DNA of 63,096 nucleotides, counting the filler. It is 14 parts of 14 records of this genome, joined end to end, with 100 filler letters (N's around TTAATTAATTAA, not from the genome) between each part and the next. Parts side by side here need not be neighbours in the genome. Positions count along the whole stretch, not along the records: positions 3,178 to 7,389 come from SRR7504441_22902; positions 7,490 to 12,051 come from SRR7504441_22909; positions 12,152 to 15,920 come from SRR7504441_22939; positions 16,021 to 20,814 come from SRR7504441_22959; positions 20,915 to 24,432 come from SRR7504441_22968; positions 24,533 to 28,637 come from SRR7504441_22972; positions 28,738 to 31,950 come from SRR7504441_22979; positions 32,051 to 35,137 come from SRR7504441_22985; 6 more parts are not named here. One strand, written 5' to 3'. Shown here in pieces: positions 4,080 through 63,096 of this stretch (positions are counted from its first letter, which is position 1; every line of letters starts with the position of its first letter). The position numbers and the translations under genes were made by a program. Below the pieces are notes generated by a model. That model had not been told where the DNA came from. It ran no database searches and saw only the letters and a program-made list of their open reading frames with translations.

Positions 4080-7000
4080 GCCCTCAGCTGTCGACGGGGT
4101 GCGTCTGCCAGTGCAGGCCTGCAGGCGAGCTGGCCAGGCCGGGCAGGCGCTGCCGGCAGTGGTGAAGAGCCCGGATGACCCGCGGGAGTACCGGCTGATC
4201 CGGCTGGCGAGCGGACTGACCGCGCTGGTGCCGGGCCGGCCGGGCGGGCGCGAGGGGGGCGCAGCTGATCCACGACCCCGAGATACAGTCGACCGACGCG
4301 CCGGAACAGCCGATGGAGCAGGACGGCGAGGAGGACGAGGAGGACGACGAAGAGATGGAGGAGGAGGGCGACGAGGAGGGCGACGAGGAGGACGACGAGG
4401 AGGACGAGGGCCGGCCGGACGGGGAGAAGAAGGCGGCGGCGTCGCTCTCGGTCAAAGTGGGCAGTTTCAGCGATTACCCGGAGGTGCAGGGGCTGGCCCA
4501 TTTCCTGGTGCCCCGCGCGCCGGTCCGGCCGGTCAGGCTGGTTCAGGAGCACATGGTGTTCATGGGCAGCAAAGAGTACCCCGGGGAGAACGACTTCGAG
4601 TCGTTCCTGACCGCGCACGGCGGGAGCTCGAACGCGTACACCGAGTGCGAGCTGACCAACTTCACATTTGAGGTGCAGCCGCGCGAGTTGCTCCAGGGGC
4701 TCCGGATGTTCTCAGGCTTCTTCAGCTCGCCGCTGCTCCGGGTGCGGCCCAGGCCCGGCGGGCTGCAGGGCCGGGCAGCCGGACGCGATGGACCGGGAGC
4801 AGCAGGCGGTGAACAACGAGTTCGAGCAGACTGAGCAGAACGATGCGAATCGAATCGAACAGGTGCACCACTCAGACCGGCTGCGCGATCCAGTACAGGT
4901 GCTCTGCTCGAGGGCGGCAGCCGCGCACCCGTACGCTAAGTTCGGCTGGGGCAACACCAAGAGCCTAGTGCACGACCCGGCGGCCAACGGTCGGGCCCTT
5001 GCCCGGCTGGCTGCGAGCGAGCGGCAGGTGTCGACGTGAATGCGGCGCTGCGCAGATTCTTTGGGGCTTACTACCAGGCGAGCGCCATGTGCCTGGCGGT
5101 GGTGAGCCACGAGCCGCTGGCCGAGCTGGACCAAGCGGTTCGGGACATCTTTGGGCAGACGTGCGGCAGCCCGGGCTACTCTCCGCCTGAGTTCAGTGGC
5201 TGCGAGATGCCTTTCGCGGGCTCGGTGCTGGCTCACAGGATCGTGGTCGGGTCGGTGCGGCAGCGGCACCGGATGAGTCTGGTGTGGACGCTGCCGTCCA
5301 AGCTGGCTGAGTACGCCAAGAAGGCGCACGAGTACGTCGAGTCTTTGCTAGGGCACGAGGGGCCTGGCTCACTGCTCTCAGCGCTTAAAGCGGAAAAACT
5401 GGCCGATGGGCTGACCGCTGGGATTGGGGATGACGGGATTGAGAGCAATAGCTGCTGCATGCTCTTCTCGCTTGAGGTGAAGCTGACTGATGCTGGGGTG
5501 AGCCGGATCGATCAAGTGGAGCTGATGGTGCGGTCGGGCGGGCCAACGAGTGAGTGAGGACAGGTGTGGGGTTATATTGGGTTCATCGCCCGGCAGCCGG
5601 GAATGGAGTGGTACTATCAGGAGAACAGGAACCTGAGCCAAGTGGCGTTTAGATTCAAGGACCCGGACGATGCTTGGACGCTTGTCGAGAATGCCTCCGC
5701 CAGCATGTGAGCACTGCACCTGCTCGGGACCGACCTGTGGACAGGCAGAGGTACAGTCCGGAGCACGCGCTGGTGGGCGAGTACCTGTGGGAGGAGCAGA
5801 TGGACCCGGAGGCCATCAGCCAAGTGCTGGTCCACTTGACACCGGAGAACGCGATCCAGATGATCTCGTCGCCACCCGATCAGAGCGGCCGAGTGTGTGG
5901 CTACTCGATGGACCAGACCGAGAGCTGGTTCAACGTACCATACGCGATCCAGCCAATCCCGCCCGAGGTGCTAGAGCGCTGGCGTGAGGCTGCTGGGTCG
6001 AGCAGCGATCAGTTTGAGCTGCCCAGCCCGAATCCGTACGTGCCCACAGACTTCTCTCTTGTACAGGCCTTGCCAGAGCCGATGCAGGCACCCCAACCCG
6101 CCCGCTGGGCGCTCACAGCTGGCTGCAGGAGCCAGTTTGCCTGCTGGACGCGCCACGGAGCACGGTCTACCACCTGCAGGAAGCAGCATTCACTCAGCCC
6201 AAGCTGTTTGCATTCTTCGCGCTCACGCTCGACAGCAAGCTGCGCAACTCGAGCGCGCTGTGTACTGTGCTCTCCGACCTATACTGCGACGTGTTCAACG
6301 ACGTGGTCCAGGAGCCCTCCTACTTGGCTTCGCTGGCAGGGCTGAGCTATGGGCTGCGTGCGACCGACTTTGGGTTTGTTTTCTCAGTTTGGGGCTTTAC
6401 GCACAAGATTAAGGAGTTTGTGGTCAGTCTGGCCTCTGTACTGGCAGCACTACCGGTGGACAACAGCAGGTTTAAAGTCATAGTAGAGAAGCGCCGCCGT
6501 CGGTACTCCAACAAGCTGTTCTCGCCCACAGACCACTCGTACCACAACAGACTGCGCATGCTGCAGGGCCGGTGTGGCCGAAAGCCGATCGATGAGCTGC
6601 TTGAGGCCATCGACAGCCCCGAGTGCAGCCCGTCGGCCCTGGCAGCCCACGCCCGGTCGATCTCGTCCTGCGTCAAGATAATCAGCTACGTGCACGGCAA
6701 CATCTGCGCCAAGCCAGCCTTAGAGCTGGCTGCGGAGGTGCTCGCCCCGTTTGAAGCTGCCTCCGAACCGGAGCCCAACCCGGGCGGGGCGCTGTGCAGG
6801 CAGGCGGCCATGGTGCCCGCTGGCCAGACAGTGGTGAGCATGGAGCCCTGTCTCAACCAGGACGAGAAGAACAACGTGGCGGAGGTATACGTGCAGCTAG
6901 CTGAACCAGGTGAGGCCCGACCGGCCGTTGGCTAGCCGCGGGCAGGGCTGCGCACTCTGGCGATAGTCGACTTGCTCGAGCAGATCATCTACGAGCCTTT

Positions 7001-7389
7001 CTTCGACCAGCTCCGGACCAAAGAGCAGCTCGGGTGGGCCACAGCCCTGCGGCTGGCTCAGCTGTGGGCAGGTACAGCGTCTGGTGCAGCAAGCTGTGCA
7101 CCTGGGGTGTATCCGGTTTCTGCTTTGTGGTGCAGTCGTGCAAGGTAAGTCCGGCCGGGGCTGCGGCCAGGATCGAGGCGTTCGTAGAGCAGTTCAGCAC
7201 GGGGCTCAAGCAGATGCCGGCCGACAAGTTCGAAGAGCACCGGTCGGCATTGATTGCGCTCAAGCTGCAGAAGTCAAGCAGCCTGGAGGAAGAGGCCAAC
7301 AGGCACTGGCACGAAGTCGAGCAGCAGCGACTGTGCTTCCGAGGCAACCAGACGATAGCAGACATTGTCAAGACGATCACCCAGCCCGA
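4078..7389 (+). CDS. Peptidase M16A, nardilysin/insulysin-like (about 10-11 short introns; 3' truncated)
   Basis: KSPDDPREYRLIRLASGLTAL|LIHD, acidic insert, KKAAASLSVKVGSFSD, GLAHFL|EHMVFMGSKEYP (HxxEH split by intron 4508-4546), GGSSNAYT, LGHEGPGSLLS, FFDQLRTKEQLG|Y. Confidence 0.92.
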
Positions 7390-7489
7390 NNNNNNNNNNN
7401 NNNNNNNNNNNNNNNNNNNNNNNNNNNNNNNNNTTAATTAATTAANNNNNNNNNNNNNNNNNNNNNNNNNNNNNNNNNNNNNNNNNNNN

Positions 7490-8649: not shown

Positions 8650-8695
8650 ATTGATATTGTACATGCAACACATATCCTGCAGCTGATTTAAACCA

Positions 8696-10659: not shown

Positions 10660-11978
10660 ATGCTGTGCTGGCGGCGGCTCAACCCGCGCACTTTCGGGCT
10701 CGACCGGGCGGACAGGACCTGGGTGCAGCTGCAGCAGATGCTGCAGCAGCATTGCTCGGCTGCCTGCGCCGACCTGGCCGACGCCGACCCCGACAGCCAA
10801 CGCCTGGCCGGGCTGCTCGGGCGGCTCGCAGACGGTGCGGTGGCCGCTGCCAGCGACGCGGCCGAGCTGTGCTGGGCGCGGCTCGCGGAGGGGTGGTGCA
10901 GCCCAGCAGACAGCACTGATCCTGGTGCCAGGTGGCCGCACGTGGCCTGGCGAGAGGCGTATGTTCTGGCCAATCTGGCACTGGCGCACGCGGCGGTGGC
11001 GGCGGGGGCGTGGCCAGAGGCGATGCGGCGCACCGACATCTGCATCATCTTCGGGGCGCCATCCGAGGCCACTGCCGCATTCGTGGACACGATAGAGCCG
11101 CAGCTACGAGGGGCTCAGCCTGCGGTGGCGGTGCGGCTGGCCCCGCGGCAGCTACCTGAGGGCTGGGGCCGGATGCTTGGTCGGCGGGCGGCAGTGGCTG
11201 AGCACACCGGGAGCATGACAGTGGCGCAATTTAGGGCACAGCACTACCGGCCGGCCAAACCGGTGGTGATGCGACGGGCCGCAGCCCACTGGGAGGCGCT
11301 GGAGCGGTGGAGCGACCTCGGCTGGCTCCAGAGTCAATTCGGGCACAGGCTGGTACCGGTCGAGCTGGGCCGACACCGCCGAGGCGAGCCGTGGAGCGAG
11401 CAGTTGATGACGGTGGGCGAGTTCTGTGACCACTACCTAGCCAGGTCACCACCGGGTTCTCCAGAAGAGTGGCCGCCAGCTGAGCAGGTTGGGTACATAG
11501 CGCAACACCCTCTGATTGAGCAACTGCCGTTACTGCGCCGGCACTTTAAGACTCCGGCGCTGGTTAATGTGTCGCGGTTGGAGAAGGTAAACTGCTGGCT
11601 AGGGACTGCGGGCACCGTCACACCTCTGCACTTTGACTCGTACGATAACCTGCTAGTGCAGGCATGCCACATCCCAGTGCAGGATATGACCGGGCGTGGC
11701 AGGTCGTTGGGTTCAAATATGTTCAGCTGTTTGCACCCGATCAATCACAATACTTGCACATCAACAATGACCGGTCCGCTGCCAAGTCGACAACTGCACA
11801 GCAAAACATTTCGCCGGTCGATCCAGAGTCGCCGGACGCCACACGCTTTCCTCGATTTGCGGCAGCAGAAGGCACTGAGGTGATTCTTGCTCCTGGGGAC
11901 ATGCTATTCATGCCAAAGGGGCACTGGCACTATGTGAGATCACTGACTCCTTCGTTCTCAATCAATTTTTGGTTTTAA
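10660..11978 (+). CDS. KDM8: JmjC-domain protein, JMJD5/KDM8-like (GC-AG intron 11662-11702)
   Basis: [19 protein letters not shown]...[73 protein letters not shown]. Confidence 0.9.
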
Positions 11979-12736
11979 AGTTGTAATGACATTGTAGTAG
12001 TACAAGATTTCATGTATGTACACACATGATTGTATGATTGTACATACATGANNNNNNNNNNNNNNNNNNNNNNNNNNNNNNNNNNNNNNNNNNNNTTAAT
12101 TAATTAANNNNNNNNNNNNNNNNNNNNNNNNNNNNNNNNNNNNNNNNNNNNCATAGATATTCTATAATCATTCTAAATGACACTTGAGCTGTTCCCCAAT
12201 TGGGTTTGCATTTCCAGGAGAGCAAACAGTCGCCTTGGCAGCGTAGAGATGGTTCTTTTTATCTGAAAAGATGACTTCGCCCACCTGATCGGCAGCCGAG
12301 AGTGCTTTGATTGTGCACATAGCTATTTTAACCCTTGAGAATGGTACCCTCCCCGCTGCTGATCAAGAATTTCCCGAGCTAGTGCCGCCAGACACATGCT
12401 CTCCGTACTGCGCTTTACTCAGGAAGTGTTCTGCAGCACCAGAATCCTAAGTAGCACCATGACATGTACAGATTGTACACGCCCAGCCCGATATCGATTA
12501 GCGGCAGCACTCAATTTTCGCCGGACGGCGGAGCTCATCCATGGACAAATTATTTATTAAACTAACTTTAGTAAGTTTAGTTACAAGTAGTTTAACAAGG
12601 GGCGCGATGAGCGTCGGAGAAGCTGGTGATCGGGCTATGACCGGGCGCGGCAGTTGCCGCCCAGCGACTTAACAAGCACCTTCAGGAGAAGAGGCGCAAA
12701 CGCAAGGGAGCGGCCCGCCCTCGGCCTGACGCACTA

Positions 12737-13254: not shown

Positions 13255-15410
13255 CTAGGGCCTATGGTGACCATGGCCAGAGCACTGCACCAAAGATTCA
13301 CGACAATACGAATGTTTCGTAGTTGAAACAACAGAGATTATAGATTGAGTGGTGCACGCGATCAGCAGCAATATTCCGAGAATGAGCAAGCAGAATGCAG
13401 GTAGGCGGTACCGATTCAGGTCCTGGACACACCGCAGTCTATTAATAAAGCAGTGACCAAGCGCAGCACCTCAGTAATGCCTCTCCTCTGGACTGGTTTG
13501 GACTGGCTCTGGCTAAGAATCACAGATAAAGATTCCGTCTCCTCTAGCCGCGGTGGGGCGTGAGCCTCGACAAATGTGGCCGAATCAGGTGTCGGCTCAC
13601 GTAGCCGGAGGTAACAGGCAGCGGGAGCGATGAACCTACACCACAGCCACCAGTCAGCCGCCAAAGTAACGGTGCAGCTCTCACCCGATTGTTATCGAGA
13701 CCGTGGATCCCAGGAAATTCCTGGCAACACACCCCGTCAATCCATTATGCATTCAGACTAGCCAGCGATCGGAAGCTTACCAAACAGTGACAACTGATGT
13801 GACTCGGGAGGCGATAAACGCAGCCGAAAAGACAATCAGAATCGACTCGATCAGCACAATGTACCACGGAAACTCCGGCTGCTTCCCCTTGCTGAGAAGG
13901 TTCTCTACACAAGCTCTGCACGGCCTCGTGATCAGAGGCAACGAGAAGATGAGCGAGCACGAAAGCCCGCACTGGCCGACAAGGATGAAACTGAACTTGT
14001 TGTGATCTGCAACCAAGCACTGGCATGCTGTATGCCCGAGTAGCCGCGCACCGTAATTCTTGAGTAGATTGTCACAGATCGTGTCACGAAACTCCAAGTA
14101 CCTTGTCACAACTCAGGCGCGAGCAGCGAGCAGCACACTCACGCGAACACTGATATGATGGCGTAAAACACCCACACGGAGGCCATCGTCACATAGATCA
14201 TCACCTTGAGCCGCTTGCGACTAGGCTCTCTCAGCGCCCGGTGCAGCGGCAGTACGTTGAAGTGGCACATGAAGGCGCACGACATGATCGAGATCGATTC
14301 TAGCAGACCGGAGAGGTCGTCTGGGAAGAGGCGGACCCTGTTGTACAGCTCGGGGTACAGCCAGGGGCCCTTGAACCAGCTGGGCTCCTGCACCGGCAGC
14401 TGAGCATGACGTGGCTCCTGTACTAGACTGTACTATACTATGCTGTACTGTACTATAATTATACTATCAAGTAATAGAATTACCCGATGCCCGAACTTGG
14501 ATTTGGAAGCCTCGATCGCTATGGCCACGCCCAGAGTGGAGATAGACATCATCGAGAGCAGGCTCGTATACCGCAGCGCTGAGATGTCCTGCGCGCCGTC
14601 GCTAATTAAACTGTTTTTGCACCAGACTGCGCACCTTAGGCAGCTGAGCCGGTAGCACCAGCGTGGCGCAGATAAAAATGACATAGAATCTGCCCGACCG
14701 GTCAGCCCGGCCCGCCCAGCGGCCCACCGCTTCTCGCTCTCCGAGGCTGTGCAGACCCAGCCAAAGCTGTCCTGAAGCGCGAGCACAAGCACAGGCACCA
14801 ACAGGTCCGCGAGCAGGATAAGGTATGCTATGGCCGCCAGGAAAGTGAGACAGAGCACCATTCCAGTCAGGCACAGCTTGGCGCACGGCCCGAACGCGGC
14901 GTACACCACGTCCTCATAGCTCTCGGCCGCGCAATTTGAAGTCTCGCCCCGCTTGCGCTTTGTCACCCGACGGGAGGACGAGAGCAGCAGCATGGCGCTG
15001 TAGGCCGACATGCCGGATATGGCCATCAGCAGGATGGGCGCGAGCACCACGCCGCACCGGTGACAGGTGTACGGCAGCGACAACACCCCGCCGCCGATCA
15101 CAGTGCAAATCAGGTTGAAAATGGACGACTTGACTGTCCCGTCCCGGCCCTCAGCCTCCTCCTCAGCGGTCTGGACCGCCTCAACGAACCCGTCCTCGGT
15201 CAGATTCCCGGCGCTCAGGTTGGGGGTCATGTGCCCGCTCGACCCAGAAGGGCTAAGTACCGATGGCCCGACCTGCCCAGTCCACAAGCGGCCCGCCTCG
15301 CTGTCCACCTTGGACAGGGACGGCGGGGTAGCGAACGGCGTATAGCTGCCACCGAACCGCTCAGACCTACCCAGGGCTAAGGCGCGGCACTCTGCCGGCG
15401 TGCTCCCCAT
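13255..15410 (-). CDS. Amino acid/auxin permease (AAAP/SLC38-like) transporter, multi-exon
   Basis: SSIFNLICTVIGGGVLSLPY, SYEDVVYAAFG, LRYTSLLS, SISIMSCAFMCHFNVLP; manual splicing gives W|NFLGSTVSITIG|FIAPAACYL and a final TM before TAG at 13255. Confidence 0.88.
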
Positions 15411-16401: not shown

Positions 16402-16998
16402 TCAGGTATTGACCTCCTCCTTGCTCTCCCTGTCCTTTCGCGACTTGCAGCAGCCGCCGCCGCCGCCGCTCGACGTCTCTTTCTTGGCCGCGGCCGGCCG
16501 GATGTCTTGGCAATCGATCTTGTGCATCGGCCAGTGCTTCTGCTGGCACTGCCAGCCGCAGTAGAAAGCCTTCTTACAGGCCGAGCAACGCATCTCGGCG
16601 TCCATCCCGCACACCAGGCACACGCCCCCGGCCGCTGACGCCCGGCCCAGCGCCACCATCGAGCCCCGCAGGCCCGCCGCCGCCGACGACTCGGTGCCGC
16701 CGCCCCCCCCTCTAAACCACTTGCCGTCGGGCGGACTGGGCGGGGGCTCGGCCGCTTGCGCTGACGATTCAGCCACCGCCTGCCCCGCGGAGGCCGTCAC
16801 CCCGACCTGCTGTTGCTGGCTAAACCAGTTGGGCTGGAGGGTCCCGCTGGCCGTCCCGCCGGCGCCGGGTGCCGCATCGGCGGCGGGTGCCGCATCGGCG
16901 GCGCGAGAGTCGGTGAGCACAGGCTCCGGGTCCAGGCCGGGCTCGTGCAACGGCTGCGCCGGCGCCTCGCTCCGTTCGCAGCACGACGTCGCTCCCAT
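16402..16998 (-). CDS. MYND zinc-finger protein with putative acylated N-terminus
   Basis: CLVCGMDAEMRCSACKKAFYCGWQCQQKHWPMHKIDC is a MYND finger; N-terminus MGATSCC. Confidence 0.85.
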   Translation of the reverse strand: MGATSCCERSEAPAQPLHEPGLDPEPVLTDSRAADAAPAADAAPGAGGTASGTLQPNWFSQQQQVGVTASAGQAVAESSAQAAEPPPSPPDGKWFRGGGGGTESSAAAGLRGSMVALGRASAAGGVCLVCGMDAEMRCSACKKAFYCGWQCQQKHWPMHKIDCQDIRPAAAKKETSSGGGGGCCKSRKDRESKEEVNT

Positions 16999-17115
16999 AG
17001 ATCGCCCTCTGCGCCGGGTCGTGGCCCTCAAGTGGCCGGCGAGATGGCCGCCAACGGCGATAATAACGGACTCTTGACTCGAAGCCCGGACTCACCGACT
17101 GGCGAGTCGAGCACG

Positions 17116-20100
17116 ATGTTGGGATCTGCTCGTGCCGCGGGGCTGGTCTGCTATGCGCTGCTCATGGCTAGCTGCTCGGGCTCTTCGGTGCGCTCCTGCC
17201 GCACGCAGCTGCAGCCGGCCGACACCCCGCTGGTGACGGGCGTCCCGGCCGGTGCGGTGCGGCTCGGCTGGCAGCTGGCCGGAGCTCGGGCCACGCGTCA
17301 GTCCGGGTACCGGCTCGAGATCTCGGGCGGCAACGGCACCCTCGCCTGGCAAAGCGGCTGGGTGAGCTCGGACCGTCAGTCCGTCACGGTCCCGGCCCGG
17401 CTGGCGGATGACGCCAGCTACCGCTGGCGCGTGGAGGCACGGCTCTCAGACGGATCGGTCACCGGCTGGGGTTGCGGCCCGGCCAGTTTCGACACAGCCC
17501 CGGGCCCGGGCCAGTTCCCTGCGGCTGCCCGGTGGATCGGAGGCGGCGGACAGCTCCGGGCCAAGCGCGGGCTTATGCTGCCGGCAGGGGTGATCGCGCG
17601 GGCGAGGGCGTATGTCTCGGGGGTCGGGGCGTTCTACTTGTTTGTCAACGGCAGGCAGGTGGGGCCTAATCTGATGGATCCGCCGCAGACGGTGTATTCC
17701 AAGACAGTGCTGTATTCGAGCCTGGACCTTGGAGCGTTTTTGATCCCCGGCCAGCTCAACCATCTCGGTGCGCTGCTCGGACTGGTTAAATGGGGATACA
17801 CCGACCTTTGGTGCAACCTGACTGCGGCCGGCCCCGACGGCTGCAAGGCGCTCGTGCTCAGGGTGACTGTGGAGATGGCGGACGGCTCGATCCATGTGCT
17901 TGACACCAGCGACCCGAACGACTGGCAGGCCAGGCAGGGCCCCGTGCTCTATGACCATTTCTTTCATGGCGAGAGCTTCGACGCCACCGTGCCGTTCGAT
18001 TGGGCGGCCGATAGCGCTTTGAATGCAGATCCGGCACAAGCGTGGCGCCCGGCAAAGCTAGCCAATCCGATTGCGACAGCCCCGACTGGAATGCAAGTTG
18101 TTGGGCCTGACGGGGCTGCTGTGGCACTGGGGACGCTGAAACCAACCCAGTCGCCGCCGCTGCGGGTGACAAAGCGGTTCGCAGCCCAGTCAGTGACCCA
18201 GGTGCTCGCTCGAGACGTGGGGGAGGCGTTTGTGTATGACTTTGGGCAGAACATGGCAGGGATGGTCAACCTCCTGCTCCCGGCCAACCACGGCATACCT
18301 GCAGGGACCGTACTCAGGATTGAGCACGCCGAGATCGTCCAGGGCCGGAGCCGGGACATCGACGAGATGTGCAAGATCTGTCCCAAGTGTTCGTCGTGCT
18401 CGGGGGGAGGTGGGGGGGCAAGTGGGCCTGCAGGCCAGGGCAGCTGTGACAGCAGAGGCCAGGGCGCGGTGTGTGATACATACTGCCACAACCCTTCGCA
18501 AGACAAGGGTTCTGGCCAGCCGGACAACCACCCGCTCAGACACGAGCCTTGCTTCCCGCACCAGTCGTACAGCCCTGGGTTCCCTGCTGGGGCCCCGGCA
18601 GCGCACGACACCCCTTACACATTCATCGGCGACTTCAACAATGCCAACCAGACTAACCTATACACCGTGGCCGGCGACCCGGCCGGTGAGCAATACACTG
18701 CGTACTTCGCAGCCGCCGGTTTCCGTTACGCCCAGCTGTCCGGGCTACCGGCTGGCTTCAAGCCAGGCCTCTTGCTGCTCTCTGCTCTGCGGGTGCACAG
18801 CAACGTCCCTGTCGCGTCCAATCTCACACTGCCGCAGCTCAAGGGGACGCACTTCGGGACTCCAGATGTTTTGCAGCGGATTCATGAGATCACCACTGCT
18901 GCTCAGTCGAGTAACCTTTGGTCAATCCCAACAGACTGCCCACAGCGGGAGCGGCGGGGCTGGATGGGAGACGCGCAGTCGACTGCAGACGAGGCCAACA
19001 TGAACTTTGATATGCACGCGTTCTACGAAGAATTTCTCAATAAGATCCGCGACGACCAGGCACGGTACAACGGCAACCACCCGACCGACACGGGCGCGCT
19101 TGCGGACGTGGTGCCTTACGATGGAATCGGAGGCAACCCCGGGTGCCCAGTGTGGCAGGTGGCGTACATTGTGATTGCCCGACAGCTATGGAAGCATTAT
19201 GGGGAAGACGCACTGCCTTCGCTGAAAGAGCACTACCCCGGGCTACTCGGGCTGCTCGGGTGGTTCGACCGCCACGCCGATCCGTCTGACGGGTTGCTCA
19301 CCATCGCCTGTTACGGAGACTGGATGGGATTCAAGCCCTCGTCCGGCAACGGCGGAGGGTCGCCACTCACACCCGCGGGATCGGTCAGCTCGTTTTTCCA
19401 TGTTCTGGCTGTGCAGTACTTGTCAGAGATTGCCACTGCTCTTGGCAACACCGCCGACGCCCAAAGGTTTACCCAAAGGTTCCACAGAGGCCAAGCAGCC
19501 TACCATGCTCGCTATTACAACGCCACCGTCAGTGGCTACAGCCCGTGCACAGACCAATGCGAAGGCACCTCCTCGCGTGGCTCGCAGACTTCGAACGCGC
19601 TCGCACTTGCACTCGGTGCGCCGCCGACTGCTGAAATCCGGAAGGCAGTGCAGAAGAGCTTGGTTGACGATGTTGTCAAGTTTGGCCGCAGGGCTACAGT
19701 CGGAGTGACAGGGATGGCCTACCTGTTCGAGGCACTCGATGCTGGTGGCTTCTCGGGCACTGGCATTGACGTGCTCTTGAACGACGCCTATCCCAGCCTG
19801 GGCCACATGGTCCACCAAAATCAAACCACTTTGTGCGAGAACTATGCTGTAAGTCTGCCCAATAGCTGCCCTTTATTGAGCCGGTGGTGTAGTGCACTTT
19901 CCATGACGCCGGCGGCGGCTCCCAGAATCATATCATGCTCGGCGGCTTTGACGCGTGGCTGCTCTCTTCGGTAGGCGGGCTCGATTCGGCAGTGAATGGC
20001 TCCACTGGTGGGTGGCGTGACGTGATTGCCCGGGTGGCGCCTGGGGCCATCACCAAGCTCAAGAGCTCGACATACGTCAAGCGCACAAGGTTCGGGGATG

Positions 20101-20390
20101 TGAAGCTCGACTGGCGGTTTGACCAAACCAGCTCAAAAGTGCTGGCAAGCCTCACACTTCCGATCGGCTCTGCCGGGACTTTCCACGCGCCTATGTCGTT
20201 GGTGCGAGAAGATGGCACTAGGCTGCAGCTTCAGAGCTTGCGGGAGAGTGGCGTGGAGCTCTGGGCCGACCGTGCTGACCGCACGTTGCCAGCAGGCGTA
20301 GAGGCAGTTCGGGAGAGCCAGCTCGATCGGGAGCTTCTGACGAGCGTTGGCAGTGGTGGCTTCAGGTTTGAGGCGCGGTACTCGATGTGA
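17116..20390 (+). CDS. Secreted alpha-L-rhamnosidase, GH78 (intron 19849-19892)
   Basis: Signal peptide; ARARAYVSGVG, YDFGQNMAG, IPTDCPQRERRGWMGDA, YGDW; splicing restores TTLCENYA|CTFHDAGGGSQNHIMLGG. Confidence 0.92.
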
Positions 20391-21935: not shown

Positions 21936-21952
21936 TCTACCGACCAGCGGCG

Positions 21953-47100: not shown

Positions 47101-47147
47101 CTCTCATCGCCGTAGCCGATTTCCACCCGCGGCCGCTGGCTGCTCAT
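44126..47147 (-). CDS. UxaA/GarD-family (altronate/galactarate) dehydratase with SAF domain and tandem duplicated core; 3 introns
   Basis: SAF GDNVGVA...[56 protein letters not shown]. Second module PTSLC, PHSEGCG, HGCEK. Introns 46047-46086, 45712-45748 (GC-AG) and a 35-nt intron near 45525-45559. Confidence 0.9.
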
Positions 47148-47262
47148 CACCGCAGCGGCTCGACAACGGAAACTGAAACAACGGACGGATCCTCTCAATG
47201 AAAGGAGCAGACTGGCTGAGGCTCCGTTGGGATGAGCTAGAGGGAAGCGCACGAGGGCCGGG

Positions 47263-48768
47263 ATGAAGTTCGGCAAGTCGCTCCAGGCGGAGATGGTCCC
47301 GGAGTGGGCGGCCCACTACATTGACTACAAGGGGCTCAAGAAAGTGGTCAAGGAGCGCATGTTCGAAAGCCTGTGCCGGACCGACGACGTGACCGACCTG
47401 CTCGGAGTCAACATCGTCGGGTCGGACGTGGAGATATTCTTGAGGAAGCTGGAGCCGCAGGTCCAGAAGGTGCACAAGTTCTTCCAGTCGCAGCTCTCGA
47501 TCGAGCAGCGTAACGTGACCGACCTGGAGGCCGCGGTGGCCGCCATGAGCCTCCAGGCCCCGGGCGGACGGGTGGCGGACCCGCAGGGCAAGATCCAGGG
47601 GATGCTGAGCCAGGTGGGCCTGCTGATGCTGCACGTGGGCCACCTGGAGAAGTTTGCGCACCAGAACGAGGAGGGGCTGCGCAAGATCGTCAAAAAGTTC
47701 AACAAGATCCTGGGGACCGAGCTGCTGCACGACAACTTCAGCCGCAACTGCAGCTTTCACCGGAACGCCCGAACCATTCCATTGGTCACCATCAAGGCCG
47801 GTACCTGCTGCATCAACAACACACTGCAGCAGTTGCTGCCCACATTTGCAGTGCCGAGCCCCAGGTTGGAGCTGAGCCGGAGCCTGACTGAAGGCGAGAT
47901 CGACCTGCCCGCGTTGCAGAGCCACTTCCACCAGCCGCTCAAGGAAGCGGCCAAGGCGTTCGGTGTGTGTGTGACTGTGTTCAAAAGGATCTGCCGCTCG
48001 CAGGGGATAAAACGCTGGCCGGCTCGACGGGTCAAGATGGTCCAGGCAAAGAAAGCCAAACTGTGCAAGCGCATCGGGATAGAGCAGACCGCTTTCGACG
48101 CGATACAGCCGTCGGGGGAATCGGACCCGACTGGCGAGGCGATGCTGCACCAGCTGCAGCAGGCGTTTGAGGAGCAGATCCCGGCTGGCAAGAGGAGGAT
48201 CAAGATCTGGGACAAGCTCAACCAACGGAAGCTGACTGGGATGGCCGCCCCGCTCGAGGCCAACTTGGAGGAGTACCTGAAGAAGCATCCGGACCGAGAG
48301 CCGTATGCAGGGCAGGACGGGCAGCAGTCGCAGCGGTCTGACAGGTCGACGGATTGCGGTTCTGTGGGGCTTCAGGCGGATCATCTGCGAAGCATTGTGG
48401 GTGCCAACCAGAACTCGGCCAATCGTGAGACCAAGCACGAGATGCAGATCGCCGAGGCTGCAGTCGAGCTGGGCAAGAGCCTCGTTGAGACTAAGCTAGA
48501 GGCAAGAGTCTCGCTCACAGAGCCGCCAAACAGCTCAGACGTGCAGGCGCTGCTTGCCAGCTCGCCTGAAGCGAAGCCGGTCTCAGTGACCTCTTATTCT
48601 CCATCACTGTCCTCGCACAGTGCTGTGCTTGCCAAGTGTGCTCCCTCCCCCCACAATGCTAGTGCGGAGCACCCTGCAGAGAATATTTGTGTCGAAGGGC
48701 TACTGGATGCTGTGCCGAAGCCACATCCTGATACGCAACCTGACCTGCCACTGCTGATGGATCTGTGA
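47263..48768 (+). CDS. SPX + RWP-RK + BRK-like domain protein (putative phosphate-sensing transcription factor)
   Basis: MKFGKSLQAEMVPEWAAHYIDYKGLKK...EGLRKIVKKFNK (SPX); LQSHFHQPLKEAAKAFGVCVTVFKRICRSQGIKRWPARRV (RWP-RK); RIKIWDKLNQRKLTGMAAPLEANLEEYLKKHPDREPY (BRK-like); single exon. Confidence 0.88.
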   Translation: MKFGKSLQAEMVPEWAAHYIDYKGLKKVVKERMFESLCRTDDVTDLLGVNIVGSDVEIFLRKLEPQVQKVHKFFQSQLSIEQRNVTDLEAAVAAMSLQAPGGRVADPQGKIQGMLSQVGLLMLHVGHLEKFAHQNEEGLRKIVKKFNKILGTELLHDNFSRNCSFHRNARTIPLVTIKAGTCCINNTLQQLLPTFAVPSPRLELSRSLTEGEIDLPALQSHFHQPLKEAAKAFGVCVTVFKRICRSQGIKRWPARRVKMVQAKKAKLCKRIGIEQTAFDAIQPSGESDPTGEAMLHQLQQAFEEQIPAGKRRIKIWDKLNQRKLTGMAAPLEANLEEYLKKHPDREPYAGQDGQQSQRSDRSTDCGSVGLQADHLRSIVGANQNSANRETKHEMQIAEAAVELGKSLVETKLEARVSLTEPPNSSDVQALLASSPEAKPVSVTSYSPSLSSHSAVLAKCAPSPHNASAEHPAENICVEGLLDAVPKPHPDTQPDLPLLMDL

Positions 48769-49209: not shown

Positions 49210-51205
49210 TCAGCATTTCCAAATGCGACAAGTGTTATCTTTTGACCCTACACAGAAAGTCATCAGTACCACCGCCAGTTGCACTATACAATCCGAGTGG
49301 CAGGCCACTTAGGCTGAATAGATATGAGCAGCACCTGTGATTACTGTGTCGCCCTCGTAGTTGAAAGCACAGGAGAAAATCTCATCTGTGTGACCCTCCA
49401 TCACTTGCAAGCATTCGCCACTTTCACAGTCCCATAATCGCGAAGTCTTATCCGAGCTTGCCGTCAAGATTTTAGTTCCTTGAGGATTGAAACACACCTG
49501 GACAGCACGAAGTGGATTACGACCTTCGTACTACTGCACCTTAGAAATCTCTCCCTCGTGACCGATCAGAATAGCCAAGCATGCCCCAGTCATCGTATTA
49601 TAGATCCGAGCAGAGCCTGAAACCTCTGCTCACCATCCGGTCCGGACGCACGGGTTCACCGTCTGCCGATGCAGTCACCAACTTGCTGCCTGATGTGTTG
49701 AAGCACACATCAAGGATCTCGTCCGTGTGGCCTCTGCACACCAAGCTTTAAGAGCTTGCCCCACATGCTGCTGCAAACCTCAATGTGTTGACACATTCCC
49801 CTGTGTTGCAGTTCCAGATCTTGGCTGTGCGGTCCTGCGCACCTCGTTACACGGCGCGCAACGGGGCCATGCTCACAATGCTGCCTGTCAACGCCAGATC
49901 CCCAGTGTAGTTGAATTGGACACTCGAAATTTCACCACCGTGGCCAGCCAGTGTGAACATGCACCTGCAGCAGCAGATCAATCGCAAAGACAAAACAACC
50001 CCAGCGGCGCAGTATAGTGGCTCGACTTACTGCCCGGTTCGGACGTCCCAAACTTTGGATGTATGATCGAATGAGCCAGTCATGATCTTTTCTCCAGTCG
50101 TGTCAAAGCACAGGCTCACAATCTCGGCAGAGTGGCCCTGTCGAAGCTGTGAGCAACTCGAGCTCTAACGGGATGTTCACCAGCAAGGTTGACAGCGATT
50201 CCCCAGTATCAACATCCCACAGCTTGGCTGTGCTGTCCATTGAACCCGTTGCAACAATGGTGCTCTGCACCCGTTCGTGAGCACAGCACACACGCAGTTG
50301 GATCGGACCTGCGGGTTGAACGACAGGCATACGATCTCAGTCTGATGACCTCGCAGCGTGGAAATTAGCTCCCCAGTGTGAGCATCCCACAACTGCCCAG
50401 CAGCATTCAGCCATTTGCGGCCCTGCAGCAGCACCTTGCATGTTTTGTCAAAGGAGCCGGTAATGATCTTATCCCTACCATTAGACGCTCAGCCCAGCAG
50501 CGCCTATCCCCCTGGTGGCACCCGTAGGGATTGTTGAATGCGATTGCGTAAACTACATTCTTGTGCCCCTCCAGCGTCAGCAGCTCTTCGCCAGTGTTAG
50601 TGTCCCAGACTTTGCACGTTCTGTCGTAGCTTCCGGTGATGAATCTGTCGTCCGATCAGTCGGTGCTCTGGACAGCAGCCCCGACCTGTCGCCGGACTTG
50701 TTGAACGCGCAGTTGGTGAGTGGCAGGATGTGCGCCCGCAAGATTTTAAACAGGTAAAAGTTCTGGCTCTCGTTCAACTCTTGCTTCTCGATCAGCTCTG
50801 GGATACCCCCAGTTTCAGCCGACGCGCCAGCCGGTGCGTCTACGCACTGAAAATCAGCTTGCGGAGCTGAGAGCGGCGGCTCTCTTTGATGAGCGGCTCG
50901 TGCTGGATGATCTGGTCCAGAATCAGCTCGACGTCGGTCCTGGGCCAGCTCGCTCGTACTGGTTCGGGCCAGCCGGCGGCGCACTCGGCGCTCAGATTGA
51001 GCAGGTCGATCGACTTGTTGCGCAGCTCGTTGGCTTGCTCGTACTCGAGGATGATCCCTGGCCCTAGGGTCAGCAACCACTGCGCGCCCCACTGTCGAGC
51101 CGCGCACCAGGGGGGTAGTATCTGCAACCAGCCAGTCACGAGTGAGTGGGCAGCCCCGCCGCGCAGGCCGGCCGCGCACCTCAGCAGGAACCGCTTTAGC
51201 TTCAT
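49210..51205 (-). CDS. DAW1: Dynein assembly factor with WD repeats (ODA16/WDR69), intron-rich
   Basis: [97 protein letters not shown]. Confidence 0.95.
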
Positions 51206-51372: not shown

Positions 51373-53346
51373 ATGGTAGCACGGGAGCAGAACCCGTCGG
51401 CGTCTGGGGAGCTCCCACACGAAGCGGATGCTCCGGAGGTCGAGGCCACGCTGCTGCATCCAACGGCTGATATCAGCGCGGAGGGAGACCGGGTGCCATA
51501 CGCGGAGGAGGATCAAAGGTGGCAGCAGCCGAGCTGGCTGGGCACCCGCTCCTGGGCGAAAAATGCGACCTCAGCCGCCATGGTCATCAAGGCCCTCAAC
51601 CAGCGAGCCAAGGCAGTCCACGACCAGGGGTTGAGCCTCATGCGCGCAGCTGTGCAAGATTGGGTGGCAAACTCGGACGCAGCGGCACACACCCAGGGGG
51701 GTATTCGAGGTCTCGCCCTGCGCATCGTGGACTGGGAATACTTCGAGACTGTCATTCTGGTGTGCATTTGTATCAACTGCGTTCTTCTGGCACTGTACGA
51801 CCCCTTGAATCAGGATAGGTTCCAGGAGGTCACCAAGCACATTGAGACGGCCTTGCTCTGCATTTTTGCTCTGGAGATTGTGGTCAAGATGCTGGCCTAT
51901 GGTGTGTGCGGTGGCAGGAGAGCCTTTTTCCGCAGTGGCTGGAACTGGTTGGATCTCTTTGTGGTGTTAGTTGGAATCCCAGGCCATCTGTTTGACGATG
52001 CAAGTGACGCTGAGTCATTCACAGTCGTGAGATGCTTTCGAGTTCTCCGGCCTCTCCGAACGATTACACGAGTACCTGGTCTGGCGGTGCTTGTTGAAAC
52101 ACTACTTGAGTGCTTCAGCGGAATGCTGCCTGCACTTGTGATCTTCATGGGTTTCTTCCTCCTATTTGGCGTCACAGGTTGCCAGATGTTCATGGGACAG
52201 CTGAATCAGGATTGCTATGATGCCAGCACACACGAGCTAGATGTAGCCTGGGGTCGCAAATGTGGATACATTGATTGTCCTCAGGGCGACATTTGCGCAG
52301 TATCACAGACGTCACCAAACTTTAACACGACGAATTTCAACGATGTGTATCATGCCATCATCACTATCTTTGTCGCAATGACACTTGAAGGCTGGGTTGA
52401 TGTCATGTATGCACTGCAGGATTCGTATTCTCTTGTAGCAGCAACTATTTACTTCCTGCTTATAGTTTTGATTGGCTCATTCTGTGTGCTTCAACTGACG
52501 ATGGCCATCGTCTCGAACCAATATGAAGTCCATTCAAATGCAATGGAGGAAAAGAAGCGTCTCGAAGATGCTAAACTCGCCCAGACCACAGTTGACCAAG
52601 TCACTCCTAAAGAGAACGAGAAAGACTCTGCGACTGTCGTTGAGCCGAAGCAAGATATTACAGAGGAGAAGCAAACATCAATTGAGAGTGCTATCGAGCA
52701 AAAGCAAGATATCACAGAGGAGAAGCAAACATCAACCGAGCTCTCAGATGTTTCAGATGGCTGTACAGCAGTGTAATCCGCCAAATACGTGGGCCAACGC
52801 CAATATGCATTTTGATGACATTGGGAATGCCTTACTAACGCTGTTCCAAGTTGCGTCGCTTGAGCTATGGCCAAACGTGATGTACAGGTCTCTCACTGCC
52901 AGCCTGACTGCCTAGTGTGTTCTAGTGTCATGTATTCTGGTCCAACCTGAACCTATCCTGATTGGCAATTGAGTACTGTGGTGTACAGTACTATGGATGC
53001 ACCGTCTGAGATCGGGCAAGCCCCAGAGGAGAATGCCTCCTGGTGGGCGGCATTCTACTTTGTTTTTTATGTGTGTATTGGATCATTTCTTATTCTCAAC
53101 CTCTTCATTAGTGCCGTGGTCGACACATTTGAAACAGAGCGAGACAAGGCCACGGGTATGGTGCTTTTGACAGACTCGCCAATATCAGCTTCACTTTATT
53201 CCGATGGAAAATTCCATTTCATGGAGGTCTTCATGGCGCTAGCTAAGTTCGAGTACGGTCCAGAAGAGATCTTGAAGCTGACAGGTATGTTAATTGGTTT
53301 GAGCTCTGGGTGCTTCCATTACACCGAGAAGCCTGCAATCGGATGA
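51373..53346 (+). CDS. Voltage-gated Ca2+/Na+ channel-like gene, internally deleted (repeat I complete, then pore/S6 fragment, then C-terminal fragment); possible pseudogene or misassembly
   Basis: FETVILVCICINCVLLA, RSGWNWLD, S4 VRCFRVLRPLRTITR, pore TLEGWVDVMY; after TAA 52776, FDDIGNALLTLFQVASLELWPNVMY and IGSFLILNLFISAVVDTF, then DGKFHFMEVFMALAK. Confidence 0.75.
52641..52740 (+). repeat. 54-nt tandem duplication in the channel linker
   Basis: EPKQDITEEKQTSIESAI / EQKQDITEEKQTSTE; CAAGATAT recurs at 52651 and 52705. Confidence 0.85.
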
Positions 53347-53617: not shown

Positions 53618-55163
53618 TCATACGGCGGGGTTCCTGTACAGATAAGGAAGATCCTTCCCATCAGTGATCTCTCCTTGCCGGTGCAATCTATTCTCCTCGT
53701 TGTGCACTGCAACTTTCACTGCAGGCATCCCGTGTCGGCCAAACTCTGCAAGCAGCCAGCAATTAGCACCGTGCTGTCCAACCACCACACCAAGACTTAC
53801 TTTCATGGTCGTTTGGGTCGAACTTCTTGGATTTCTTTTCAACGATTTCAGCCAGCGACTTGGTCGAGTGTTTCTGTCTCAGGTTCTGTCAACCCAAAAC
53901 AGTTACTAGAAAGGCGCCCTCAGGCTGCTGGTTCACCGGGTTCATCTCTAACAGCTCTTCCGCCACTGCCCGTGACAACCGCGACACTCTGCTCTTCTTA
54001 GATTCAGCACTGCACACCTGCAGAGCAGTCTCACACGCTGCAAGTAAGACTGGCAGACCGAGCCATCCCACTCCTTGTCCCCCGCCGCCTCTGCGGCCTC
54101 TTTCTCGCGCAACGCCGCGCTCATCGCCGTGTGCACCGACCCGGCGGTCATCGCAGTCTGCTCGCTCATTATTGTTGGCTGCTCCTCGTCCGGCTCTGCC
54201 TCGTCCTCGCTCTCCAACTCTGAGATGCGAGCTTTGGCTGCAGCAAGTGCCTCACGAAACTCACAGTCGTCCATATACTCGTCGATATCCAGCTCCTCCG
54301 CGAACTGCAGCAAGTCCTCCACCTCTGCCTCCTCGGTCACCTCATTCTCAGCCTCTGTCCGTGCCCAGGCTGGCTTGTCGACAGCTGGCTTGGACTCCTG
54401 CTCCGGCTCCGGCTCCGGCACCTTGGCTTTCTGGTCAGGAAGTTTGCTGTGCAGCTCTTCGACGATGTCCTTGTTCAGCTTAGTTTTGAGCTCGCCAAGC
54501 ATCTGCTCCTTGGACAGGATCGCACCCGCTGCAGCTGGACCTTGCACATCGTCGATGTTGGCCATGTTTCGCTTGATCTGTCTGATTTGGTCGCGCACCT
54601 TCTGCGAGTCTTCCGCCAGCTGACCAGAACGATCGGCCACCCGGCCGGCCGGGGCCCGGTACCTGCTTGCGTTGCTCCTCCTCCTTCAGGCGCTGTGCCT
54701 CCTCCTCGATCAGCAGCTCCTTCTTAAGCTGCTGCAACGAGCGTAGCCAGCGCCTGTGATTAGTCATCGCCGGATTCTTGGGTTTCGCTGCACCACCAGC
54801 TCAGTCCGGACCCCAAGCGCTGGGCTTGCCTGGCCGGTCGCCATCGGAGACGGGGCGCGGCTTCCGGATAGGATTTAGCCCGAGCTGCTGCGGGGCGTTC
54901 ACCGCGGTCAGGAAGGGCTCTGGGTGCCCGCTGTCCCATGCGCTGGCCAGGGTGCTGGCCGGCCGGGCGCACCCGTAGTCCGGGGCGTGAGTGACCACTT
55001 GGATCCCAGGGCGGTCGCAGAGCATCACGCCCTTGTAGTTGGATGAATAGTTGTTGTCGGACGGACCAGGAGCCGGGGCCGTGGCAGCGCCGCTGTGATG
55101 ATCCGACAGGGAGGCCCCCGCCTCGGGGGCCATCCTCATCGACATCATCACCTCCTTCGACAT
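53618..55163 (-). CDS. Hypothetical coiled-coil protein, multi-exon
   Basis: NYKGVMLCDRP, NHRRWLRSLQ, KPAWARTE, DLLQFAEELDIDEYMDDCEFREAL, C-terminus LPYLYRNPAV*; the ORFs are linked by short GT-AG introns. Confidence 0.65.
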
Positions 55164-59545: not shown

Positions 59546-59645
59546 NNNNNNNNNNNNNNNNNNNNNNNNNNNNNNNNNNNNNNNNNNNNTTAATTAATTA
59601 ANNNNNNNNNNNNNNNNNNNNNNNNNNNNNNNNNNNNNNNNNNNN

Positions 59646-62600
59646 GGAATCCCCATGATGATGCACTCACTCACCCCTGACACATTGAGCTCAAAGCAGC
59701 ACACACCAACCCTGACCTGATATTTTATCCACCCTCGAGCGTACAGCGGCCTCAAACAAGTGATCCGCTGTCTTCTCAAACGATGCCAACATCAGCACTG
59801 AATCGCGCATCTTTTCTATTCCGAAACGGGTGATACCGAGCACCTGCATCCGGCCTATCACCGACTGCCCTCCGGGGGGCGATGCCTCGCCACGGTAGGT
59901 CATTGTATCAGCGAGCAGCCAGATATGCCTGATATCAATCCCGATAGAGTAAGACTTGAAAATCTTGTTGATCTCCGTGACAATTTGGCTCCGGGCCTGC
60001 AAGCGCAATGAGCTCCAGCTGCAGCAGCGTCGGCACCGCTTCTATTCCGAGGCAGTTCTGGATCTCTATGATATGATTCGAGTACGTCGTGGTTCCCTCC
60101 ACTCCAGGGATGCCGTACACACTATCCATCCCGTATCCTTCCACATACACCTAGCCGGCCTGCTCACAGCCAGCAGCCAGGAGGGCTGCCTTGTAGGTCT
60201 TGTCCTCCTCGTTGTTGGAGATGACCGCCCGCTCAATCCCAGGGATCCCAGCCACCTAGCCCACAGCAGTAAGCCCACGGATCCTCGAGATCCATGTCGA
60301 CGCAGGTTTAGTCACCTGAACGTCCGGAACAAACTTTTGCACAAACTGCAACTTGCCCAGCATCGCCTCTCGCTTGTAGTCGCTACAGATCACGTGTATC
60401 TTGTCGTTGCTGCGCACCTTGACGTCCTTGAGAGTGAGTTTGCGTTTCGACTGTGCTACAATCGCGTGCTGGACCCCGACAATTGTGACCTCAAGCTGGA
60501 GCTTTGAGATGGTCAACAGGTCTAGTTTGATGCTGATAAAGCTGCCCGACACCTCGTGTACCTCCTTGATGTAGAGTGATACTTCCTTGAGTCTGGTGCA
60601 TTCAATTCGGCCTTTCACGATGCGAGCGGCCTGCAGGTCTAGAGGCTCACACAGCGAGACATCCACAATCGGTGTGGAGACAGTCTTTGCTGCGTTGATG
60701 ATCTCCTTGATCCGAGGCACCCCCATCGTCACATTCATGCTTGCCACGCCGGCAAAGTGGAACGTCTTGAGCGTCATTTGTGTGCCAGGTTCGCCAATGC
60801 TCTGGGCAGCAAGCGCACCACAGGCGGTGCCAGGCTCGATGAGTGCCAGAGAGAATCTTTGTTCGCAAGCCTTGAGGTAGCTGCCAACTTGACTCTTCGT
60901 GATCCTGTGCCGCTCCAATGCCCGGGCCTGCAGAATCTTTTGAGTCTTTTTGCTTTCACTCTTCTTGGCCAAAGCATCGAGCGCAGTCATCTCATCCTCC
61001 AGCCTTTTAGCGAACTTCCCGAGCTCCAACAGCGCCCGCTCGAGCCACTTAGGCTCCGAGCCGTGCTTAGTCACATGCTTGGTCCGCTGTTTGGTCACCA
61101 TCTTGCGCAGCTCTGACGGCTCGAGAGGCTTCTCCTGCTCGGCCCCTCGCATCGGCTGCACATGCACCGTGTGCTCCAGCTGGCGCTCAAAGTTGAGTCC
61201 GCCATTCTGCTCGTCCAAGTCCGTCGGGTCGAGGCCGTCCTCCCCGTACACAAACTGCACGATGTCTCCCGCCGAGGTGCGACAGGTGGTGTCCCATTGG
61301 ATCGACAAGTCTTCCATCGCCTTCATCAGACGGCGCTGCATGTACCCGGTCTCTGCGGTCTTCACGGCTGTATCCACCAGACCCTCGCGTCCACATATGG
61401 TGTGGAAGAAGAACTCGGTCGGAATCAGCCCGGAATAAAACGAGTTCTGGACAAACCCCTTGGCGGCAGGGTCGCGTGCAAACATTGGGAAATGCGGCAG
61501 CGTGCGGTTGACAAAACCGTGCGGAATCCGTGAGCCCGAGACAACCTGCTGCCCGACACATGCCACCATCTGGGCAATATTGATGTCTGATCCCTTGGAC
61601 CCAGCCCTTTCCATGATCCGCGGCGCGTTGTTCCGGGCCAATTCCTTGACGCATAATCCGCCTGCTTCATTCCGGATCGCAGAGAGGACGCCCTGCCACA
61701 CCACAGGGTGAATAACGCAGCACAGGCCTGAGATTTACCTGGATCTCAGTCTCCAGCGACTTATCTAGGTTCATACCAGGCAAGCACTCCAGCTGGCCGT
61801 CTTGGTACTGCTTGATTAGGTTATCCACTTTGGCAAAGCCTGCGTTGATCATCTCTTGTTTCTTGGTCACAAGGTTCTCGGAGGCCGTCACATCGTTGAT
61901 TCCTATCGAGAAGCCTTGCTGGCCCATGAAGCGTGCTGCCAGCTTAGCAACTCGCCCCATGCACTCGCCAGCAACGTGTGGCCCATACTGTCGCAGCAGC
62001 AGATAGAAGAGCGAGTCCTTACCGCCACCAAGCGTTTTCTTATCGAGCACCCCACAGAGCAGTTCAGAATTCTCGATACAGACGTACCCATCATTCGGCT
62101 CAAGCCACTTATCGCCCTTCCACTTCTTATCCCAAGACTTGCACTTGAGCTGAAAGCTCACAAAGATCGGCGATTCCTTGCTCGGCCGGATCAGGACCGA
62201 GAAGACCTGTTTTCCTGTCCAGAGCTCGACTGGCTTAATGATAGCCGGTGGAGGCAGATCGATCAGCTCGTTGGCGTCTGTTAAGAAACATATCAGCTGG
62301 CAGAACATGGATCGGTCGTAGAATCTGTCCTTGGAGGTGAGCAGGTATGCCGCGGTGAGGAAGTCTTGTGTGGCAGCGATGACCAGCTCGCCGTTACGAG
62401 GCGTCACCAGGTTTTGCAGAGTGCCCATCAGCTCAATCGCCTCGGTCCGAGCTTCCTCTGTCTGAGGGACATGAAGGTTCATCTCGTCACCGTCAAAGTC
62501 AGCATTGTATGGCGCGCACACGCACTCGTTGAACCGGAGTGTGCGCCATGGCATCACCTGCCGATCATCAGTATCGTCTTTCAGAGCAGCGCCACCTTAG

Positions 62601-63096
62601 CACGATGTGCCATAATCGAGAGCTTGTGCAGCGACGGCTGCCTATTGAAGAGCACAACGTCCCCGTCCCGAAGGTGCCGCTCCACCACTTCGCCTTCCTG
62701 GAGCTGCTTCGCCTCGAGCACCTGCCGACCGGCTCATGACAACCATCCAAGAGCGGCTAAATACCCGGTCTGACACGAACCGGAGGAATTTCTTCCGGCC
62801 GGACTTCTTTAAAATGTAATTCGCCCCGGGGTGCACATCGGACCCGTTGATCACACACCGCCGAAGCTCGTCGATGTTGTATATGTTCACCTGCAGCGCG
62901 GATCAGCCTGCGGCAAAGGGGCGCGGACCTTGGCTGGGTAAGTGAGTGTCTTGGCCATGTGTCGGGGGACACACACTTGGTCCACGCCTATATTTGGATC
63001 TGGCGAGATCACAGTCCGGCCGGAGAAGTCTACCCGCTTGCCCGACAGATTGCCTGCCCAGCCGCGGTGACCTCGGAATCTACCAGTCTAGGTAGT
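59646..63096 (-). CDS. POLR3A: RNA polymerase III largest subunit RPC1, partial at both ends, at least 9 introns
   Basis: [139 protein letters not shown]; the latter motifs are pol III-type. Confidence 0.97.

Follow-up and report, generated by a model that had tools for sequence, protein, structure and literature searches.

The 63,096-base stretch analysed here (the window, along whose whole length positions are counted) holds eukaryotic genes interrupted by very short introns, and the question that it raises is how the splice sites of such introns are recognised. The original prediction had described these introns as mini-sized, GC-rich and free of a polypyrimidine tract, had noted that in many of them the first bases are complementary to those preceding the terminal AG, and had proposed that splice sites may be defined by structure and length, or else that the introns are eroded insertions of the introner type. 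We found that the mini-introns are genuine and that their terminal pairing does not exceed chance; the observation is partly confirmed and its headline interpretation, end pairing, is refuted. We consider it highly probable that they are conventional major-type spliceosomal introns which, in the nuclear genome of a marine flagellate resembling telonemids, have been reduced almost to the smallest size that still works. Minimal introns are as such a known kind, encountered here in a poorly sampled lineage. The window consists of 14 contigs of 3.1-12.2 kilobases (kb) each, with a G+C content of 0.55-0.66, and represents several loci rather than one. As the contigs are stitched together by spacers of the form 44 N + TTAATTAATTAA + 44 N (3078-3177, 7390-7489, 12052-12151 and ten others), any feature that seems to cross a spacer is an artefact.

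Evidence for splicing was provided by contigs of three public metatranscriptomic RNA runs (X4, X5 and X6; two studies), which were placed, together with those of one DNA run, on the single N-free 12.2-kb contig, where RNA cover is limited to 43.6-44.4, 47.3-48.1, 48.9-51.3 and 53.0-55.0 kb. Most of the mapped RNA contigs are 95-100% identical to the window. Among the joints listed (15 of 20), 14 are clean skips of 41-87 nucleotides (nt) with CT..AC borders on the plus strand, which correspond to GT..AG on the minus strand. Thirteen of these skips fall within a minus-strand WD40 gene (49.2-51.0 kb): the introns 49498-49539 (42 nt), 49617-49659 (43 nt), 49734-49778 (45 nt) and 50265-50308 (44 nt) are skipped in X4, X5 and X6; 49248-49334 (87 nt), 49835-49876 (42 nt), 49965-50030 (66 nt) and 50138-50180 (43 nt) in X4 and X5; 50798-50847 (50 nt) in X5 and X6; and 50393-50434 (42 nt), 50475-50521 (47 nt), 50645-50685 (41 nt) and 50940-50984 (45 nt) in X5. 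The fourteenth (53746-53800, minus strand, 55 nt, GT-AG) is skipped in X4 and belongs to an unnamed gene. A fifteenth joint, in X5, runs from 51058 to 51180 with 13 intervening letters and comprises two minus-strand GT-AG introns, both starting GTGCGCGGC, of which the 58-nt one (51122-51179) lies upstream and the 50-nt one (51058-51107) downstream of a 14-nt micro-exon (51108-51121, minus strand); the letters within the joint match the reverse complement of this micro-exon. Furthermore, an X6 contig stops at 54832 and carries 21 loose letters that match 54769-54789 with 2 mismatches, by which a 42-nt GC-AG intron (54788-54829, minus strand) is supported in the same gene as 53746-53800. In total, 17 introns are supported by RNA, each of them cut out exactly.

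Two further observations were made along this RNA cover. An RNA contig has 22 T ahead of 48996 (plus strand), and 48996 (minus strand) is likely the poly(A) site of the WD40 gene. In 53801-54017 (minus strand) the piece lengths of X5 RNA record 18 imply a 41-nt skip, and no GT/GC-AG pair of that length is present there; the gene-model introns 53886-53936 and 53966-54010, which lie within this interval, were excluded from the validated set.

Gap-free alignment to homologs or continuity of a Pfam profile (the scan input being the 150 longest open frames) validated 24 more introns and brought the set to 41. Nine of them interrupt a plus-strand gene for an M16 insulinase-like peptidase, all with GT-AG borders: 4228-4264 (37 nt, gap-free against 9 homologs), 4508-4546 (39 nt, in frame, whose excision restores HFLEH), 4742-4778 (37 nt), 4863-4898 (36 nt, in frame), 4990-5027 (38 nt), 5528-5563 (36 nt, with an in-frame stop), 5707-5744 (38 nt), 6910-6945 (36 nt, with an in-frame stop) and 7034-7071 (38 nt), an intron cited in the original prediction for its internal stem, at which the tblastn frame changes (7037 -> 7073) and the spliced product (...KEQLGYSVW...) matches homologs. 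In the Mot1/BTAF1 gene (plus strand) homolog alignment supports three GT-AG junctions, 40217-40266 (50 nt, gap-free against 8 homologs), 41183-41221 (39 nt, in frame) and 41305-41344 (40 nt). Profiles carry on across three others: in a JmjC/Cupin_8 gene the 41-nt GC-AG intron 11662-11702 (plus strand) separates Cupin_8 profile position 158 from 159, the latter in residue 1 of the downstream exon, and in an altronate/galactarate dehydratase-like gene on the minus strand the GD_AH_C profile passes from 36 to 39 over 46047-46086 (40 nt, GT-AG) and from 180 to 183 over 45525-45559 (35 nt, GT-AG). The most complete case is the gene for the largest subunit of RNA polymerase III (RPC1, minus strand), in which 9/9 junctions align without a gap to the Telonema subtile protein; its GT-AG introns are 59677-59716 (40 nt, junction 965), 59997-60036 (40 nt), 60256-60315 (60 nt, TAG acceptor), 61693-61738 (46 nt), 62558-62595 (38 nt), 62722-62764 (43 nt) and 62891-62928 (38 nt), and its two GC-AG introns are 59844-59885 (42 nt, junction 923, GCATC...GATGC-AG) and 60151-60189 (39 nt, TAG acceptor). 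Many genes carry introns at high density, those for WD40, RPC1 and the M16 peptidase having one every 150-350 nt.

To widen the set to 93 introns, these 41 were combined with 52 predictions, each frame-shifting or containing an in-frame stop, that came from a purpose-written Viterbi gene finder with fixed signal models. This finder over-calls in-frame 'introns' (under self-training its output grew from 140 calls to 389, most of which were in-frame segments of genuine exons, 27, 33 or 39 nt long), and six of its calls were removed as false introns: 40969-41010 and 42299-42343 by the Mot1 homolog check, 45776-45811 and 52004-52042 by the Pfam profile check, and 7072-7135 and 7145-7187 by the M16 tblastn/homolog check. 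Also removed were the calls in 3256-4024 of contig 2, a region where no homolog alignment reaches so far upstream, and the in-frame prediction 4111-4146 was never part of the set. As regards the introns cited in the original prediction, five of the six coordinate pairs are validated by homology or profile, and three introns stay at the level of predictions: 14589-14634 (minus strand, 46 nt, GT-AG, a frame-restoring finder call) and the two frame-restoring introns of the HYPK gene (plus strand), 27923-27959 (37 nt) and 28016-28055 (40 nt), the second of which is followed by an exon that matches positions 1-29 of the UBA_HYPK profile.

The validated introns have a median length of 42 nt (interquartile range 38-45, range 35-87; 36/41 of at most 50 nt) and a G+C content of 0.654, which follows that of their flanks (Spearman 0.57, p=1e-4) at a higher level (0.65 vs 0.58). 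Donors are GT in 37 and GC in 4 (GTGCG, GTGCC and GTGAG being the commonest), acceptors CAG in 37 and TAG in 4; all 41 introns end in AG, and G occupies position -4 in 27/41. The consensus is G|GTG(C/A)(G/C) at the 5' site and (G)CAG|G at the 3' site, and none of the 41 intron starts (39 + 2) matched [AG]TATCC, the leading part of the U12-type consensus [AG]TATCCTT. GC-AG introns, which usually account for about 1% in most eukaryotes, make up 4/41 here (11662-11702 on the plus strand; 54788-54829, 59844-59885 and 60151-60189 on the minus strand) and 13/93 in the wider set, with donors of the form GCA(T/A/G)(G/C)C. No pyrimidine tract, a feature characteristic of animal and plant introns though not of all introns, precedes the acceptor (pyrimidine fraction 0.45 at -12..-4, interior 0.52); G is abundant over the last 10 nt, its fraction at -12..-4 being 0.44. 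What is found upstream of the acceptor is a TNA with its A at -11..-16, present in 29/41 introns as compared to 7.0±2.4 (maximum 15) over 500 interior shuffles. This branch-like motif is degenerate and often reads CTGAC, CTGAG or CTCAC; the stricter YTNAY with its A at -9..-22 occurs in 11/30 introns vs 3.3±1.6 in shuffles, and CTRAY forms are likewise enriched there. The putative branch A mostly lies 25-32 nt from the 5' end, and no AG intervenes between it and the 3' AG in 25/32 introns. The same anatomy characterizes the 93-intron set. As a description, 'length rather than a U2AF-type tract' therefore holds, as do the small size, the GC-richness and the missing tract.

We quantified terminal pairing by five measures: the flush helix starting at +1:-3 (G-U allowed), the best helix with offsets of up to 3 nt per end, the pairs within the first 8 positions, the pairs between +2..+6 and -4..-8, and the duplex energy of the first 12 nt with the 12 nt preceding the AG. 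As a control, acceptors were redistributed 10,000 times among donors, either overall, by G+C quartile or within the same contig. The complementarity quoted in the original prediction does exist as 5-6 flush pairs in 4228-4264 (5), 59844-59885 (5), 14589-14634 (6) and the HYPK introns (5 in the first; 6, G-U included, in the second); in 4742-4778, by comparison, only 2 pairs are flush and a 6-pair helix is offset. The original prediction had itself named end complementarity no greater than that of re-paired donors and acceptors as an outcome that would count against it, and this is what we observed: the mean flush helix is 2.41 pairs in cognate and 2.41±0.15 in re-paired ends (n=41; p=0.51 overall, 0.45 by G+C quartile, 0.47 within contigs). 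The other four measures gave p-values of 0.35-0.70 in the validated introns, and all fifteen combinations of measure and scheme in the 93-intron set fell within 0.25-0.80. At least 5 flush pairs occur in 3/41 introns (4228-4264, 59844-59885 and 53746-53800; expected 2.9) and in 6/93 (expected 5.9). Position +1:-3 is 'paired' in 100% of true and 100% of re-paired combinations and +2:-4 in 79% vs 78%, the other positions ranging from 0.31 to 0.59; per-position covariation between the two ends was null after correction for ten tests. Moreover, the pairs at +3..+8 amount to 2.61/6 in register; eight slid registers give 2.07-2.56, and base composition predicts 2.63. Folding gave a similar picture, since the minimum free energy (MFE) relative to interior dinucleotide shuffles had a mean z near zero (-0.21 for n=15, -0.08 for n=30, 0.01 for n=96), and the pair-probability mass between the first 10 and the last 14 nt was unchanged vs shuffles.

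The source of the apparent pairing can be read from the splice-site consensus. Opposite G+1 there is always C or T (-3), and the base opposite U+2 (-4) is G or A in about 78% of introns, so that G+1:C-3 and U+2:G-4 supply about 2 baseline pairs in any donor-acceptor combination; the chance of pairing at each further position is about 0.43 (65% G+C, G-U allowed). Complementary ends are hence a by-product of consensus pairs and GC-rich sequence with G-U allowed, and the examples of the original prediction are about what picking the best cases from some 100 introns yields. Because 2 pairs come free from the consensus, claims of 'complementary ends' in GC-rich GT...CAG introns require a re-pairing control.

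These results bear on three other explanations. Structure-assisted splicing, in which the first bases form a short helix with those preceding the AG that joins the splice sites and replaces the pyrimidine tract, would draw on the tract's absence and on the 5-6 flush pairs of 4228-4264, 59844-59885, 53746-53800, 14589-14634 and both HYPK introns, and if true would have amounted to a new way of defining GT-AG introns. The test speaks against it, as such helices are as frequent in re-paired as in cognate ends, no excess appears in the short (<=40 nt), GC-rich (>=0.70) or combined subsets that hold the examples, and neither register, end-to-end pair probability nor folding energy departs from expectation. 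A helix from +1 would also mask bases that have to be accessible to U1 and U6, and we regard this explanation as very improbable. An origin of the mini-introns as eroded copies of introner-like transposons, with end complementarity as a fossil of their terminal inverted repeats, we regard as quite improbable. It would find some support in 8- and 9-mers shared above mononucleotide shuffles (k=9, 57 pairs vs 18.2±4.1, n=93) and in 4-mers resembling target-site duplications (nominal p=0.014 and 0.039). These shuffles, however, preserved neither dinucleotides nor the branch motif, nor simple motifs rich in G+C such as GGCTGGC and CCGGCC, and it is to the branch motif and these simple motifs that we attribute the 8-9-mer excess. 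Sharing of 12-mers is at chance (1 pair vs 0.4 for n=93, 0 vs 0.0 for n=39), the 16 rows of blastn-short matches (8 reciprocal pairs) span only 12-17 nt in mixed orientation, duplication-like matches are not enriched at k=3, 5, 6 or 8, and the end complementarity that was to be the fossil is itself at chance; comparison of the 93 introns yielded no families, and no pair of introns shares more than those 12-17 nt. Old, eroded families may nevertheless have escaped a survey of 63 kb.

There is, finally, the explanation that errors of assembly, or frameshifts, in a metagenome bin account for the interruptions and that these are no introns. The make-up of the window, stitched from short contigs, could be cited in its favour, but the contigs of three independent RNA runs omit precisely such stretches, with GT..AG ends, removal restored the alignment at every junction tested, and splice and branch motifs are consistent throughout; its probability is practically negligible.

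Excision is exact at GT-AG termini, with about 10% GC-AG. If, as we favour, these are conventional spliceosomal introns near their minimum size, a normal spliceosome would pair the splice sites across the intron (intron definition) through two fixed distances. The 3' AG would be picked by its nearness to the branch point, with no tract bound by U2AF65, and a spacing of about 25 nt between 5' site and branch may come close to the steric minimum, by which the abrupt lower limit of length near 35 nt would be accounted for. Several points weigh against this reading or blunt the evidence for it. Branch points were deduced from motif position, an Rfam scan of the window returned no match and hence no small nuclear RNA gene was seen within 63 kb, and the exact borders of the homology-validated introns rest on the GT/GC-AG rule and the reading frame. 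The data comprise 63 kb, with 41 validated and 52 predicted introns only; the smallest mean pairing excess that such samples could reveal is about 0.3 pairs for n=41 and 0.2 pairs for n=93. Furthermore, among ten tests of position pairs in 39 validated introns, +4:-6 gave p=0.02, a signal absent from the 93-intron set, and in one run of 60 shuffles 4/30 validated introns had an MFE z < -2, so a few introns hold strong hairpins.

The identity of the host was addressed through its polymerase. A 492-residue polymerase exon used as query retrieved RNA polymerase III subunits, the top match (68% identity, as compared to about 50% for other eukaryotes) carrying the record label EP00656_Telonema_subtile, and the spliced RPC1 model is identical to the Telonema subtile protein at 766/1028 positions (75%). 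On the strength of this identity we place the host as a telonemid or close relative. Its marine habitat is read from the labels (marine metagenome or metatranscriptome) of the runs in which RNA contigs nearly identical to the window occur, the run shares being 0.06-0.10. The 120 Mot1 matches listed included no telonemid, and a word-index search with the insulinase exon gave no match, an exhaustive one retrieving homologs of only about 30% identity. Besides the polymerase subunit, the M16 peptidase, JmjC/Cupin_8, HYPK and Mot1/BTAF1 genes, Pfam identified as eukaryotic genes of the window CFA20 (a flagellar protein), amino-acid transporters, an RWP-RK/SPX protein and an ion channel; a transfer RNA scan of the window found none.

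How the mini-introns relate to known systems can then be outlined. Known examples of short ciliate introns are AT-rich. Those of the window resemble the introns of ciliates and other short-intron eukaryotes in having GT-AG borders, lengths clustered tightly just above a lower limit, weak or degenerate internal signals and many introns in many genes, and differ from ciliate minimal introns by a G+C content of 0.65, a mode of about 37-45 nt, about 10% GC-AG donors, G-rich last 10 nt and a telonemid-like host. Introners are far longer than the mini-introns; the marine algae that carry them are, like the present host, marine protists with many introns per gene. The 93 introns of these 63 kb form no multi-copy families and carry no consistent signal of target-site duplication, nominal significance being confined to the 4-mers. 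Some fish introns reportedly carry complementary simple repeats at their two ends. Introns of about 40 nt leave no room for repeats of that type. The idea in common with the fish introns is that a helix across the intron can stand in for U2AF2 and the pyrimidine tract (Lin et al. 2016, PMC4691745); the window introns differ in having neither complementary repeats nor a helix excess. The nonconventional introns of euglenids lack GT/AG at one or both sites and possess terminal base-pairing motifs (PMC11170887), and provide the real end pairing that the original prediction had proposed for the window; both of their defining features are missing here, where 41/41 borders are GT/GC-AG and the ends pair no more than by chance. 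Several lineages are known to possess introns that are very short and degenerate (PMC2483917). Among the papers listed by full-text searches, which do not reach subscription journals and supplements, none described nuclear introns in telonemids; a telonemid paper (PMC12432456) has mitochondrial genomes as its subject.

We tentatively suggest that the window may offer a first look at telonemid-like nuclear gene architecture, intron-dense and with minimal tract-free introns, a branch motif at -11..-16, about 10% GC-AG introns and at least one 14-nt micro-exon, which would imply distance-based choice of the 3' site and little or no U2AF65-type tract reader. Telonemia being an 'orphan' branch near SAR (stramenopiles, alveolates and Rhizaria), its introns contribute one more case to the study of how minimal introns evolve. 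In practical terms, gene callers fail on a telonemid-like lineage unless tract-free introns of 35-50 nt and frequent GC donors are allowed, and the purpose-written finder itself over-called introns and mis-called acceptors.

Some genes of the window deserve mention in their own right. A GH78 alpha-L-rhamnosidase (16765-20387, plus strand, with a 1069-residue open frame) is almost without introns in an otherwise intron-dense genome, and its C-terminal domain, which lies in a different frame, is connected by a single predicted 44-nt intron (19849-19892). Similarly, a 901-residue open frame (29017-31719, minus strand) is almost intron-free and matches Melibiase_2/Melibiase_C with its C-terminal ~370 residues; judged from sequence, it is possible that both the rhamnosidase and the Melibiase genes were acquired from bacteria. 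The altronate/galactarate dehydratase-like gene (44126-47147, minus strand) has, after its C-terminal domain, a second GD_AH_second domain (44795-45523), which may have arisen by tandem duplication or by fusion. Lastly, Pfam places SPX, RWP-RK and BRK domains together in one open frame at 47236-48765 (plus strand).

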